Positions 25,208 to 43,968 of a stretch of 60,230 nucleotides of DNA are shown here, in pieces. How positions within the stretch are numbered: position 1 is the stretch's first letter; every line of letters starts with the position of its first letter. Source of the DNA: Patescibacteria group bacterium. Lineage in GTDB: Bacteria; Patescibacteriota; Patescibacteriia; UBA9570; JAHJKD01. Where the stretch lies: positions 1-60,230 of the forward strand of contig JAZDOC010000005.1 in NCBI GenBank assembly GCA_043798935.1. The letters are read 5' to 3'. Position numbers and translations under genes: made by a program. A model generated the notes under the pieces. That model saw only the letters and a program-made list of their open reading frames with translations. It did no database searches and had not been told where the DNA came from.

Positions 25208-25465
25208 TTAATTTTGAATAAGTTCTTTCTTATAATTTCGCGAAAGTTTTTTAATGGCGACTTCCCGTTTTAAAGCAGTGCTTTTATCTGCATACAATTT
25301 AGAATATACAATTTTCTTTGCTTTGTGTGCACGAGTATAACGACTGGCAGTTCCGGCCATGTGCTGAACTAGGCGTTTATTAACATCTATAGCAATGCCG
25401 GTGTAAAGCGAACCATCAACACATTCAAGCATATAAACATAATATGGTTGCTTATTTATTTTCAT
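25208..25465 (-). CDS. GIY-YIG nuclease family protein (UPF0213-like, 85 aa)
   Basis: YYVYMLECVDGSLYTGIAIDVNKRLVQH ... ALKREVAIKKLSR. Confidence 0.85.
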   Translation of the reverse strand: MKINKQPYYVYMLECVDGSLYTGIAIDVNKRLVQHMAGTASRYTRAHKAKKIVYSKLYADKSTALKREVAIKKLSRNYKKELIQN

Positions 25466-30527: not shown

Positions 30528-30579
30528 TTATAACCCCGAGTGATTGCCCAAATGGCAATTGTATCGAGGGGTTACGATA

Positions 30580-30741: not shown

Positions 30742-30780
30742 ATTGTATATTAATTTTCAATTATTAGAAATTGCTATTTG

Positions 30781-30853
30781 AGCCAGCGAAGGGACTCGAA
30801 CCCCCGACATGCTGTTTACAAAACAGCTGCTCTACCAACTGAGCTACGCTGGC
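30781..30853 (-). tRNA. tRNA-Thr (anticodon UGU); 3' CCA is not encoded
   Basis: GCCAGCG TA GCTC AGTTGGTA GAGC A GCTGT TTTGTAA ACAGC ATGTC GGGGG TTCGAGT CCCTT CGCTGGC T, followed by CAA. The T-stem has two G-U pairs. Confidence 0.8.
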
Positions 30854-30856
30854 ACT

Positions 30857-30943
30857 TGGTGGGCAGGGAGGGATTTGAACCCCCGAAGGTCGAAGACCGC
30901 TTGGTTTACAGCCAAGTCCATTTGACCACTCTGGCACCTACCC
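30857..30943 (-). tRNA. tRNA-Tyr (anticodon GUA), long variable arm
   Basis: GGGTAGG TG CCA GAGTGGTCAAA TGG A CTTGG CTGTAAA CCAAG CGGTCTTCGACCTTC GGGGG TTCAAAT CCCTC CCTGCCC A CCA. Confidence 0.9.
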
Positions 30944-31168
30944 ATTTTCTATATTGAAAAATTTTTCAATATATTTCCGTTTCTTGTTTCTTTTTACGTT
31001 TTTCTCGGCGGAATATGCTTTTCTAACATCTAGATATTCTTTACATGCAATTAATTTCCAAGGAGCTTTCGACTTTGTATATTGTGATTTACCTGTATTA
31101 TGTTCTTTAAGCCTTCTTTTAATGTTATTTGTTGTACCAACATAATAACTTGAATCAACTGTCTCCAA
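30938..31168 (-). pseudogene. N-terminally truncated GIY-YIG (UPF0213-like) ORF; TTG start; stop codon inside tRNA-Tyr
   Basis: ..SSYYVGTTNNIKRRLKEHNTGKS..APWKL keeps the YIG and R..EH motifs but lacks the first GIY strand. The TAG stop (30940-30938) lies within nt 1-6 of tRNA-Tyr. Confidence 0.5.
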
Positions 31169-31262
31169 AATTTTTCAAATTTTGTGAGAAATCGAGAATC
31201 CTCGATTTTTCAACTGCGATGCTATGCATCGCCGGAAAAATCGGGACTCTGGCACCTACCCA
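31161..31262 (-). repeat. Two-hairpin element (copy A) preceded by a 17-nt duplicate of the tRNA-Tyr 5' end
   Basis: 31246-31262 equals 30928-30944 (actctggcacctaccca). Hairpin: TCCCGATTTTT (31246-31236) / AAAAATCGAGGA (31210-31199) enclosing GCGATGC-ATA-GCATCGC (31232-31216). The second hairpin is degenerate. Confidence 0.6.
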
Positions 31263-31293: not shown

Positions 31294-31322
31294 AATATAA
31301 ACTAAATTTTTAAAATGGTCAA
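31294..31322 (-). promoter_or_regulatory. Candidate promoter TTGACC-17-TATATT of the tRNA/rpmG transcription unit
   Basis: Minus strand: TTGACC (31322-31317), a 17-nt spacer, TATATT (31299-31294). It lies 32 nt upstream of the duplicated tRNA-Tyr 5' fragment. Confidence 0.4.
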
Positions 31323-42865: not shown

Positions 42866-42931
42866 GATCTAATTATAACCTTTCTTACAGTGTATAATCA
42901 ATAACAACATCGTCTTTTAGACGGATGTTTT

Positions 42932-43007
42932 TGGAGCCGTTGTGCGGAATTGAACCGCAGACCTTCCCCTTACCATGGGGATGCTCTACCAACTGAGCTA
43001 CAACGGC
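42932..43007 (-). tRNA. tRNA-Thr (anticodon GGU)
   Basis: GCCGTTG TA GCTC AGTTGGTA GAGC A TCCCC ATGGTAA GGGGA AGGTC TGCGG TTCAATT CCGCA CAACGGC T CCA. Confidence 0.9.
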
Positions 43008-43019
43008 AAATTTTTACAA

Positions 43020-43120
43020 GCTGCTCTACTCCCGATTTCAGCTTTGCTGAAATCGGGGATCCTCGATTTTTCTATGTCGATGCTTTGCATCGATCATGAA
43101 AAATCGGGACAACTGAGCTA
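43020..43120 (-). repeat. Two-hairpin element (copy B) embedded in a tRNA-Thr(UGU)-like D-arm/anticodon-arm fragment
   Basis: Minus strand: TAGCTCAGTTG | TCCCGATTTTT...TCGATGC-AAA-GCATCGA...AAAAATCGAGGA | CCCGATTTCAGC-AAA-GCTGAAATCGGG | AGTAGAGCAGCTTGTAAA. Confidence 0.6.
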
Positions 43121-43121
43121 T

Positions 43122-43153
43122 TTACCCGCCACATCAAATACCAGGGCGGGTAA
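43122..43153 (-). terminator. Stem-loop (TTACCCGCC / GGCGGGTAA, 14-nt loop) downstream of the TPR gene
   Basis: 9-bp GC-rich stem. No clear U tract on the minus strand, so terminator function is uncertain. Confidence 0.35.
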
Positions 43154-43176
43154 CGGCATATTTTAAAACTAATAGA

Positions 43177-43968
43177 TTACAATTCTGCAACTTGTTTTTT
43201 ATAATAATTTAATTTATTATTTTCCGGATTCACTTCTTCTAATTTCTTTAAACTTGTAATAGCCAAATATTTATCTTTAACTTTCAAGCTGGTTTCAATT
43301 AATAAATCCAGATTTTTCGGACTATTGGGTGCCAAATCAACAGATTTTTTATAGCACTTTACAGCTTCATCTGCTTTATCAAGTAAAATATTAATATTAC
43401 CCAATTGACGCCAAATGCCGTCATCATTCGGATTAATTTGTTTAATGAAGTTTAATGTTTCCACGGCTAAATCGTGATCCTTTTTGATAATATATAATTC
43501 GGCTAAACCTTTATAAGCCTCGATGTTTTGTTTATCTAAACTAATCACTTCAATATACTTTTTCTCGGCTTCACCATATTTCTCTTCATGAATTAATTTT
43601 TCAGCTTCAGCAATCAAGGTATTGTTTTTTTGACGCAAACTTTCTTTATCTTCCTGTTTTAGTGAGCTGGCTAATTTTTCTTCGCGATATTTTTTTTCTA
43701 AACTAACAATTTTTTGATATTGTTGTTTAAACCAAGAAATAATTTTCGAAAATAACGGTCGCATAAATTTTTGAATCAAGCTTCCCAGCTCTTTCATCTT
43801 GCGCTCCAACCGTTCTTCCACAATAGAAACTTTTACCTGCGCATGTTTATGATGCTTCATGGCGTCTAAATCCAGTGCGCTTAATTTAGGAAATTTGCCA
43901 ATTATAATAATAGCAATAATCGCAACACACAAAATTATTATGGCACCGATTACAAAATATACTATCAT
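43177..43968 (-). CDS. Membrane-anchored tetratricopeptide (TPR) repeat protein
   Basis: N-terminal TM, a coiled-coil region, then TPR-like units (YGEAEKKYIEVISLDKQNIEAYKGLAELY...). Confidence 0.65.
   Translation of the reverse strand: MIVYFVIGAIIILCVAIIAIIIIGKFPKLSALDLDAMKHHKHAQVKVSIVEERLERKMKELGSLIQKFMRPLFSKIISWFKQQYQKIVSLEKKYREEKLASSLKQEDKESLRQKNNTLIAEAEKLIHEEKYGEAEKKYIEVISLDKQNIEAYKGLAELYIIKKDHDLAVETLNFIKQINPNDDGIWRQLGNINILLDKADEAVKCYKKSVDLAPNSPKNLDLLIETSLKVKDKYLAITSLKKLEEVNPENNKLNYYKKQVAEL

Follow-up and report, generated by a model that had tools for sequence, protein, structure and literature searches.

The 60,230-nucleotide (nt) stretch of contig JAZDOC010000005.1 from a Patescibacteria group bacterium (assembly GCA_043798935.1), hereafter the window, carries two copies of a short two-hairpin element next to tRNA genes: copy B at 43030-43109 and copy A at 31199-31246. 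An earlier note on this DNA had described copy B as splitting the D-loop of a tRNA 5′ fragment and as recurring at 31199-31246. Alignment on the minus strand bears this out, and the pattern CCGATTTTT-N15-45-AAAAATCG occurs twice in the window against 0.01 occurrences expected. We propose, with a probability of about 0.68, that both copies belong to a widespread family of palindromic mobile elements associated with a very small GIY-YIG nuclease. Members of this family would insert into tRNA-gene loops, each leaving the remains of an inactivated tRNA next to a functional one. Loci outside the window were collected by exact-pattern scans with one genome per species and by protein searches, and are designated by L-numbers; they were read mostly from metagenome-assembled genomes. 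The copy B locus comprises the following features, given in the direction of the minus strand.

43152..43157, minus: GCCGTT, acceptor 5′ strand (nt 1-6) of a dead tRNA-Thr, from the sequence and from synteny with L170 and L171.
43124..43151, minus: hp0, a third hairpin (ACCCGCC-N14-GGCGGGT) between nt 6 and 8 of the dead tRNA-Thr, from the fold of 43008-43156.
43110..43120, minus: TAGCTCAGTTG, nt 8-18 of the dead tRNA-Thr, 5′ of copy B, with 11/11 identity to both tRNA-Thr genes of the window.
43030..43109, minus: copy B, a full short two-hairpin element free of cargo, with ends TCCCGA...TCGGGA, from sequence and fold.
43109-43060, minus: hairpin 1 of copy B, with arms TCCCGATTTTT...AAAAATCGAGGA, from the sequence.
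43059-43030, minus: hairpin 2 of copy B, TCCCCGATTTCAGCAAAGCTGAAATCGGGA, arranged as TCCCCGATTTCAGC-AAA-GCTGAAATCGGGA, from the sequence.
43008..43029, minus: GTAGAGCAGCTTGTAAAAATTT, made up of GTAGAGCA (nt 19-26 of the dead tRNA) and then the junction GCTTGTAAAAATTT, from the sequence.
42932..43007, minus: live tRNA-Thr(GGU), called by ARAGORN and by Rfam (tRNA, 68.8 bits).

Copy B is 80 nt long, contains no open reading frame (ORF) and ends in 9-bp perfect inverted termini (TCCCGATTT...AAATCGGGA). It sits 3′ of TTG, between G18 and G19 of the D-loop, and the tRNA sequence is contiguous across the insert. Both hairpins form in the predicted fold (-45.9 kcal/mol, z = -12.0 relative to shuffles; z = -6.9 for hairpin 1 alone), and the 12-bp stem of hairpin 2 is free of mismatches. 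The live tRNA-Thr(GGU) begins 22 nt past the end of copy B and no tRNA 3′ half lies between them, in agreement with the earlier note. On the other side, AAA separates hp0 from TAGCTCAGTTG on the minus strand, and GCCGTT lies 19 nt past the stop codon (43177) of an upstream TPR-repeat gene. The hp0 hairpin, which covariance model R1 (described below) does not detect, resembles the TCCCGCC...GGCGGGA mini-hairpins present in the dead tRNAs of L125, L140 and L155.

The split gene had been assigned to a tRNA-Thr(UGU)-like type, an assignment that we revise. The match to nt 8-18 stands at 11/11 for both tRNA-Thr genes alike, but beyond A26 the resemblance to tRNA-Thr(UGU) is limited to GCT and, after a 4-nt gap, TGTAAA. 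The acceptor strand GCCGTT is identical to that of the live tRNA-Thr(GGU), unlike that of tRNA-Thr(UGU), and synteny with L170 and L171 likewise favours the resident tRNA-Thr(GGU). L170, the closest relative found, provides an empty site in which the TPR-repeat stop codon is followed by 9 nt and by tRNA-Thr(GGU) without any insert. L171 carries a dead 48-nt Thr(GGU) 5′ fragment before its live gene and a complete short element elsewhere. The product of the adjacent PSP1-domain gene is 64% identical at the amino acid (aa) level to its counterpart in L170 and 55% to that in L171, the window organism having no close representative. Since the fragment starts where the resident tRNA is expected to start and carries the Thr(GGU) acceptor strand, we read it as more likely the displaced old resident tRNA-Thr(GGU), with nt 1-26 retained, than a Thr(UGU)-like gene. 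On this reading, the tRNA-Thr(GGU) that once followed the TPR-repeat gene would have been displaced and would now hold hp0 and the two-hairpin element, any nuclease gene that arrived with the insert having been lost. Copy B is probably a dead, non-autonomous member of the palindromic mobile DNA family, comparable to a miniature inverted-repeat transposable element (MITE). The run TGTAAAAATTT (43008-43018, minus), which covers the 11 nt before the live tRNA-Thr, is also found at L170 5123-5133; because the same run constitutes the stop codon of the TPR-repeat gene and the spacer before tRNA-Thr in L170, its origin is ambiguous, and it may be a trace of a donor flank or an AT-rich chance match.

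The copy A locus is organized around a tRNA-Tyr gene and retains part of a nuclease gene.

31294..31322, minus: promoter-like site TTGACC-17-TATATT upstream of the dead tRNA-Tyr fragment, from a match to the consensus only.
31247..31261, minus: dead tRNA-Tyr fragment, GGGTAGGTGCCAGAG, an exact duplicate of nt 1-15, from a 15-nt exact match to the tRNA-Tyr start.
31199..31246, minus: copy A, hairpin 1 of the same element, from alignment to copy B (fold z = -5.5; 45.8 bits as a training sequence of the model).
31184..31198, minus: remnant of the hairpin 2 5′ arm, TTCTCGATTTCTCAC, with the 3′ arm missing, from alignment to copy B.
30938..31177, minus: remnant of a GIY-YIG nuclease ORF, from its translation (Pfam PF01541, E = 9e-14).
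30857..30943, minus: live tRNA-Tyr(GUA), called by ARAGORN and Rfam.
30780-30853, minus: tRNA-Thr(UGU), after tRNA-Tyr(GUA), called by ARAGORN and Rfam.

Copies A and B share the same outer stem with the same bulged A, and their inner stems (GCGATGC/GCATCGC in copy A, TCGATGC/GCATCGA in copy B) differ by a G-C to T-A double change; the alignment thus upholds the shared stem and the compensatory change reported earlier. Their flanks differ (tRNA-Tyr and tRNA-Thr) and their loops have diverged. Hairpin 2, described previously as perfect in copy B and decayed in copy A, is reduced in the latter to the 5′ arm TTCTCGATTTCTCAC, which retains the centre motif TCGAGGA-TTCTCGA seen in L007 and L084. 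The two insertions had been placed at the same relative position of a tRNA D-loop. Both do lie in the D-loop, but at different nucleotides: after G15 of tRNA-Tyr in copy A and at G18|G19 of tRNA-Thr in copy B.

Hairpin 1 and half of hairpin 2 occupy the expected position of the ORF start in copy A. The PF01541 match begins at profile position 9 of 78, so that the first β-strand and the first catalytic Tyr are absent, and the ORF is probably inactive because it is truncated and lacks this first conserved Tyr. Its stop codon falls inside the start of tRNA-Tyr, and its product shares 35-46% identity with tRNA-associated GIY-YIG proteins elsewhere. The overall layout (tRNA nt 1-15, nuclease ORF, ORF end overlapping the live tRNA) is that of the fragment-upstream loci L157-L163 introduced below. 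We searched for a promoter-like site between the copy A element and the live tRNA-Tyr and found none; the sole such site precedes the dead fragment, and transcription of the live tRNA-Tyr therefore probably passes through the relic. Copy A is thus best described as the more decayed copy, probably still carrying a truncated nuclease gene, and the window copies are probably no longer active. The GIY-YIG gene as cargo, the pairing of dead and live tRNAs, the duplicate of tRNA-Tyr nt 1-15, GCCGTT and hp0 had all escaped the earlier note.

Two further features of the window touch this subject. A second, full-length GIY-YIG gene of 85 aa (MKINKQPYYVYMLECVDGSLYTG...) at 25208-25465 (minus) adjoins neither hairpin arms nor a tRNA; it falls in another subgroup and is 48% identical to a comparably isolated gene in L010. 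A hairpin at 30532-30573 (minus), CCCCTCGATACAATTGCC-ATTT-GGGCAATCACTCGGGG, lies 5 nt upstream of tRNA-Trp, and its arms resemble those of hairpin 2 (CCC(T)CGA/TCG-GGG). This CCCCTCGATAC...CACTCGGGG hairpin was suspected to be a fourth relic, but model R1 misses it at E up to 10.

The element has a two-fold symmetric skeleton, TCCCGA-[X]-TCGAGGA-TCCTCGA-[Y]-TCGGGA, folding as two bulged hairpins. The exact-pattern scan identified at least 118 loci, including at least 59 with a CPR-type (candidate phyla radiation) centre (AAAAATCGAGG, then A-T/C-T/C-C) that continues as in the window copies. The family consensus reads (T/G)G followed by TCCCGATTTTT, a small palindrome, AAAAATCGAGGA, TCCTCGATTTTGT, a second small palindrome and ACAAAATCGGGA. 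Short versions are 60-95 bp long and non-coding, with X and Y both small palindromes. Hairpin 1 bulges at an A, hairpin 2 at a T, C or G. Read as its reverse complement, hairpin 2 reproduces hairpin 1, bulge included, and this two-fold symmetry means that no orientation can be defined for the short copies. Among the matches listed, the hosts are Patescibacteria (including Saccharibacteria, Buchananbacteria, Yanofskybacteria and Paceibacterota), Bacteroidales and Chlorobiota, with a few bins labelled otherwise, and single genomes carry copies on several contigs (four of JBBUDS01 and three of MHII01). The bins labelled 'uncultured Gammaproteobacteria' (L171, CAZNEH010000001.1; L046; L120; L165; L168) display synteny or elements of the Patescibacteria type, and their labels are probably wrong. 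The recurrence at 59 or more loci, the abundant covariation described next and the differing flanks of copies A and B also dispose of two concerns raised beforehand, namely that no further copies or covariation would be found, or that a local duplication would explain the similarity.

An alignment of 61 hairpins, including hairpin 1 of both window copies, formed the basis of covariance model R1. Double-sided changes affect 10 of its 16 consensus pairs. Paired cells account for 94.5% of the alignment; shuffling lowers this share to 74.3% and sliding the partner lowers it to 59% or less, and 179 cells carry double changes against 53 in shuffles. G-U occupies one of 366 cells in the varying outer-stem pairs 7-12. 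The hairpin structure is therefore conserved, and the pairing invoked previously in support of a selected structure is indeed kept, but mirror symmetry and the near absence of G-U favour a DNA palindrome over an RNA-only constraint and point to a role at the DNA level rather than to a selected RNA. A four-way fold, with the ends paired together and the centre paired with itself, was rejected as the conserved fold because positions beyond the CGA core co-vary inside each hairpin; L007 has CGAC/GTCG in hairpin 1 and CGAT/ATCG in hairpin 2.

Applied to the window, R1 returned only three hairpins with E < 0.2, which are hairpin 1 of copy A and both hairpins of copy B. For copy B, hairpin 1 scored 37.8 bits (minus strand; training sequence) and hairpin 2 scored 20.8 bits (plus strand; outside the training set); as both window copies of hairpin 1 belong to the training set, only the hairpin 2 match is independent. 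The statement that the element corresponds to no described RNA family is sustained by Rfam, which yielded tRNAs only, both at gathering scores on the whole window and at E up to 10 on 42900-43250. A literature search retrieved no description of such a tRNA-associated element, its incomplete coverage making this no proof of novelty. A pattern specific for the inner stem had 0 matches in genome contigs and 0 in metagenome contigs, and a protein search retrieved no record of the two proteins neighbouring the window element. One sequencing run alone holds 4% of the sampled window words. For the Pedobacter locus described below, a look for RNA data turned up DNA or unclassified runs only. A phage origin was considered and dropped, the hairpin pattern being absent from the viral contigs scanned. 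We also set aside about 45 Bacillaceae matches to the search pattern, which represent a different repeat continuing with CATCCGCCGGAGGC. This repeat, which reads CCCGATTTTTTTCGAGCTTGCTCGAAAAATTTCCTTTGAAAAATCGAGG and then CATCCGCCGGAGGC, occurs in many copies per genome (L001, L006, L012-L014, L020 and about 40 further loci in Bacillus, Fredinandcohnia and Litchfieldia).

The short copies are strongly associated with tRNA genes. A tRNA called by ARAGORN lies within 400 nt of 26 of 59 copies (44%), against 3.9% for control positions drawn from those loci (p = 3e-21), and an exact match of 11 nt or more connects the 5′ flank with an intact tRNA of its locus in 13 of 61 cases, as compared with 18 of 1220 random positions. 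The earlier note had asked whether all copies abut tRNA D-arm fragments: the breaks fall in the D-loop (after TTG/TGG), in the anticodon loop (after TTG) and in the T-loop, often with several hairpins together, and about half of the copies lie away from a recognizable tRNA. A target-site preference, also raised in the earlier note, is apparent from the 5′ flank consensus T-T/G-G and from the tRNA loops themselves. No flanking repeat indicative of a target-site duplication was detected in 76 copies. In L019 and L091, nested TCCCGA-loop-TCGGGA sequences correspond to insertions into the hairpin loops of other copies.

In the contexts that we read, a live tRNA of the same isoacceptor lies directly downstream of the broken copy or inside it, and nearly all dead tRNA copies carry extra hairpins. 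Removal in silico of 78 short copies, counted over both strands and each tried with six variants of its boundaries, produced 0 junction-spanning tRNAs, and the broken copies are therefore pseudogenes rather than intron-bearing genes. Two individual loci extend this picture. L096 (minus, ~2400-2600) contains, upstream of tRNA-Arg(UCU), a dead tRNA-Arg whose T-arm is decayed and whose anticodon has become TCA; a functional tRNA with this anticodon would read UGA. L110, from Bacteroidales, contains a dead tRNA-Ala with the element, a live tRNA-Ala and then the apparent start of a 23S rRNA gene, and the family thus appears to reach rRNA operons.

Complete versions of the element hold cargo. In these, X is a gene for a single-domain GIY-YIG nuclease of ~83 aa, similar to Slx1/UPF0213, and in some of them Y is a complete tRNA gene. 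At six distinct loci (L084/L119, two sites in L007 of which one is L122, L008/L121, L113 and L149), the hairpin 1 loop holds the nuclease ORF, which is bounded exactly by TCCCGATTT and AAATCGAGGA. The 5′ arm of hairpin 2 and then a complete tRNA follow in L084/L119, L122 and L149. Only in L084 were the closing arm ...ATCGGAA and the remainder of the outer tRNA read, as the L007/L122 contig ends before this point. Excision of the 181-374 nt tRNA-holding elements of L028, L115 and L010 results in an outer ARAGORN call of the same isoacceptor as the inner tRNA, joined after linear position 35; the L010 call draws part of its 5′ side from the arm of a neighbouring element. Two to three nested generations are present in L007 and L010. 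Inside hairpin 1 of L007 and L084, the nuclease start codon is base-paired with the 3′ end of the same ORF. The nuclease and hairpin element is also found at the 3′ end of a protein gene in L007 (~1700-2200) and L121 (1400-1900), where the last ~15 codons are duplicated, ending ...SIKGAVRKVISR upstream and ...SIKEAVKRVISRK downstream; judged by eye, the host gene may be of the transketolase family.

The element-type proteins are 79-85 aa long and consist of a bare GIY-YIG domain without a separate sequence-specific DNA-binding domain of the kind found in I-TevI-type enzymes. The L007 nuclease matches Pfam PF01541 with E = 2e-13. The nearest solved structure is 1ywl_A, the 96-aa UPF0213 protein EF2693 (E = 0.002, residues 3-81), and the presumed catalytic Tyr, Arg and Glu residues show little or no variation across the element-type alignment. 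A large protein search for closer relatives of the nuclease returned one match, at 41% identity. Standalone bacterial GIY-YIG proteins were placed in the Slx1 cluster, with no known role, in a 2006 survey of the superfamily (PMC1564403).

We also approached the system from the protein side, using a profile built from a three-sequence alignment in a genome search for the nuclease only. This search identified 51 loci in Patescibacteria, the cultured Bacteroidota Pedobacter, Algoriphagus and Tangfeifania, Ignavibacteria, Zixibacteria, Marinimicrobia and others. In 31 of the 51, an intact tRNA flanks one side of the ORF and a fragment of the same tRNA the other side, all co-oriented with the ORF. 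The fragment is upstream in 21 loci (a 5′ fragment) and downstream in 12 (a 3′ fragment), two loci showing both. Fragments end at ~13-21, 34-41, 44-45 and 57-59, mainly in or beside loops. Outside Patescibacteria, the dead copies contain other mini-hairpins, such as TCCCGA-N4-7-TCGGGA in place of the anticodon arm, or TCCGAAGGACTCCTATGGAGA in Bacteroidota. In Pedobacter and other Bacteroidota, 21-nt double mini-hairpins of the TCCGAAGGACTCCTATGGAGA type occupy the D-loop and the anticodon loop of a dead tRNA-Ser(GGA) (L127, L128, L135, L137-L139, L143, L146, L147 and L152), are common to several Pedobacter species and resemble a miniature TCC...GGA-TCC...GGA skeleton. At L026, L130, L131, L154 and L164 (Bacteroidota and Ignavibacteria), a bare TCCCGA-loop-TCGGGA replaces the anticodon arm or follows the anticodon, as though just the ends of the element remained.

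The mechanism that we propose starts from direct observations, namely the architecture and distribution of the element, its symmetric ends, the nuclease and tRNA genes held between its arms, its tRNA association, the pairs of dead and live tRNAs, the nesting, the empty site and the conserved hairpins. The element inserts without target duplication, usually 3′ of TTG/TGG, into the D-, anticodon or T-loop of a tRNA gene, which would thereby die, and function would be kept by a whole or partial tRNA copy brought by the element. The outcome would be a hairpin-studded dead tRNA fragment beside or around a live tRNA of the same isoacceptor. Mobility would be driven by the GIY-YIG nuclease, which would cut either in tRNA-gene loops or at the hairpins of the element itself. 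As the protein lacks a DNA-binding domain and belongs to the structure-specific Slx1 family, it may recognize folded DNA rather than a long sequence, the cloverleaf loops of tRNA genes and the hairpins of the element being possible targets. Repair from an element-bearing copy, or recombination via the carried tRNA segment, would then install the element together with a working tRNA part, which would account for directly repeated tRNA sequence and for the dead and live segments being so often 100% identical. Short copies would be derivatives that lack cargo and are mobilized in trans. The hairpins may also have a secondary role at the RNA level, acting in the leader as processing stems or insulating the duplicated 5′ fragment.

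Several observations weigh against this interpretation. With regard to movement, we found neither RNA nor DNA reads for this genome and no population polymorphism. To our knowledge, no GIY-YIG enzyme has been established as a transposase, and given also that this one has 83 aa and no DNA-binding domain, the nuclease could be a co-travelling homing gene, the hairpins being moved by another enzyme. The sample of loci is bounded by the patterns scanned for and drawn largely from metagenome-assembled genomes, and about half of the short copies have no recognizable tRNA nearby. The hairpin covariance model matches 5 of the 51 nuclease loci, of Patescibacteria type only and none in Bacteroidota or Ignavibacteria; the association of hairpins with the nuclease is therefore restricted by lineage, and the two-hairpin module is a variant of a broader nuclease-plus-tRNA system. 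Six loci show the association directly, the others indirectly. Finally, the dead and live tRNA segments are often 100% identical, so that a local partial duplication at insertion fits such cases better than an imported foreign tRNA.

Among the alternatives, the hairpins could form a functional RNA module of a leader transcript that starts at the old tRNA promoter and crosses the element to reach the live tRNA, serving as RNase III/RNase P stems that release the nuclease mRNA and the tRNA or preventing the dead 5′ fragment from mispairing. This would account for the strong covariation, for the co-orientation of ORF and tRNAs in all 31 classified loci, for the fact that the sole promoter-like site near copy A precedes the dead fragment, for the pairing of the nuclease start codon with the ORF 3′ end in L007 and L084 and for the extra hairpins of nearly all dead tRNA copies. 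However, an RNA module has no need for a hairpin 2 that exactly mirrors hairpin 1 down to a bulge on the opposite arm, nor would one expect outer stems nearly devoid of G-U, about half of the short copies away from any tRNA or the lack of an Rfam match. We consider this explanation unlikely and note that it is compatible with a mobile DNA origin, to which it would merely add a role. Alternatively, the hairpins could be repeats similar to repetitive extragenic palindromic (REP) sequences and REPINs, or to IS200/IS605, moved in trans by a Y1 HUH transposase (RAYT, REP-associated tyrosine transposase), with the GIY-YIG gene and tRNA fragments sharing their hot spots. Bulged imperfect palindromes in inverted doublets, insertion 3′ of a short motif (TTG) without target duplication, the targeting of hairpin loops including those of other copies (L019 and L091) and the presence of copies on several contigs per genome (JBBUDS01 and MHII01) are all consistent with such a transposase. 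Against it, the nuclease ORF lies precisely between the element arms in six independent loci, which goes beyond mere proximity, the REP signature GTAG is absent, and no HUH transposase was noticed in the fetched loci, in which no systematic search for one was made. We regard this possibility as rather improbable.

Insertions in tRNA loops, and the outer tRNAs recovered by ARAGORN on removal of three long elements, might suggest a tRNA intron or a split-tRNA half whose insert is removed from the transcript. Yet these three elements each hold an intact tRNA of their own, none of the 78 short-copy removals restores a tRNA, outer copies decay and gather several insertions, an intact tRNA of the same isoacceptor is always adjacent, and the Rfam scans found no group I core. 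With no 3′ half after copy B and a live tRNA 22 nt beyond it, the sequence refutes an intron for the window copies, and we consider this explanation highly improbable overall. A chance similarity, or a recent local duplication of a tRNA leader in this genome, would fit the presence of only two copies in the 60-kb window; given the chance expectation stated above, the differing flanks and diverged loops, and the occurrence of the element in dozens of genomes from several phyla, its likelihood is next to negligible. The invasion of tRNA loops by a nuclease-linked palindromic mobile element remains the interpretation that we favour.

Among known systems, the closest match in logic appears to be the homing endonuclease genes of fungal mitochondria that accompany a partial gene duplication, of which atp6 of Allomyces is the classic case. 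Free-standing GIY-YIG/LAGLIDADG homing endonuclease genes reside there beside partial C-terminal duplications of atp6 and cob (PMC6279837). In both systems, a small nuclease gene lies at a conserved essential gene, a duplicated piece rescues this gene and the displaced fragment becomes a pseudogene, and the C-terminus of a protein gene is duplicated in L007 and L121 as well. The elements described here differ in having bacterial chromosomal tRNA targets, a bare 83-aa nuclease of Slx1/UPF0213 type, symmetric hairpin ends, short cargo-less derivatives, whole tRNAs carried as cargo and nesting. In the anatomy of the short copies, the closest match appears to lie with MITEs, REPINs, which are REP doublets mobilized by RAYT transposases, and the ends of IS200/IS605. 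Like MITEs and REPINs, the short copies are non-coding and have terminal inverted repeats and strong hairpin potential. They lie on 3-4 contigs per genome in some assemblies, and the cargo versions share their ends but encode an enzyme that is not a known transposase. Unlike MITEs and REPINs, they show no target-site duplication, are linked to a GIY-YIG nuclease instead of a DDE or HUH transposase and prefer tRNA loops. Bulged hairpin ends, insertion 3′ of a short motif without duplication and an affinity for single-stranded or hairpin DNA are shared with IS200/IS605, whereas the element has no TnpA (HUH) or TnpB gene and its hairpins are mirror images, in contrast to those of IS608, which are both read on one strand.

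Integrase-borne islands and phages also integrate into tRNA genes and restore them. As in these cases, directly repeated tRNA sequence borders the insert and the tRNA stays functional because the displaced part is provided by the element, but the islands and phages span tens of kb, whereas the elements measure 0.1-0.5 kb, encode no tyrosine or serine recombinase and usually repeat the 5′ part of the tRNA. SegB of phage T4 is a larger, two-domain GIY-YIG homing endonuclease that is encoded in a tRNA gene cluster and cuts it. It resembles the present system in that a GIY-YIG gene lies amid tRNA genes and that its target, like that proposed here, is tRNA-gene DNA; we know of no hairpin module, tRNA fragment duplication or cargo-less derivative described for SegB. 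In CPR rRNA genes, non-intron inserts with GIY-YIG ORFs and short inserts without ORFs have been reported at the tips of stem-loops (PMC11270868). These share with the tRNA-loop element their Patescibacteria hosts, GIY-YIG ORFs outside group I/II introns, short ORF-less forms and insertion at stem-loop tips, and they may belong to the same family; tRNA genes, hairpin ends and replacement copies were outside the analysis of that study.

We suggest tentatively, at a little under even odds, that the loci represent an undescribed class of selfish elements spanning several phyla, in which a minimal Slx1-like GIY-YIG nuclease within a symmetric double hairpin invades tRNA loops and some protein-gene ends while carrying a replacement copy. 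If so, it would constitute a natural 'cleave-and-rescue' system, in which repeated invasion generates tRNA-in-tRNA nests and hairpin-only derivatives resembling MITEs. It would provide the first biological role for standalone bacterial GIY-YIG proteins of the UPF0213/Slx1-like type, tying a very common family to a concrete genomic behaviour, and the first case of a GIY-YIG enzyme acting on the ends of its own element. The family would also account for the tRNA fragments and hairpin clusters beside tRNA genes of Patescibacteria and Bacteroidota, which can mislead tRNA annotation and gene counts. Such an element would harm an essential gene yet carry the cure, and cultured carriers of it exist in Pedobacter, Algoriphagus and Tangfeifania.

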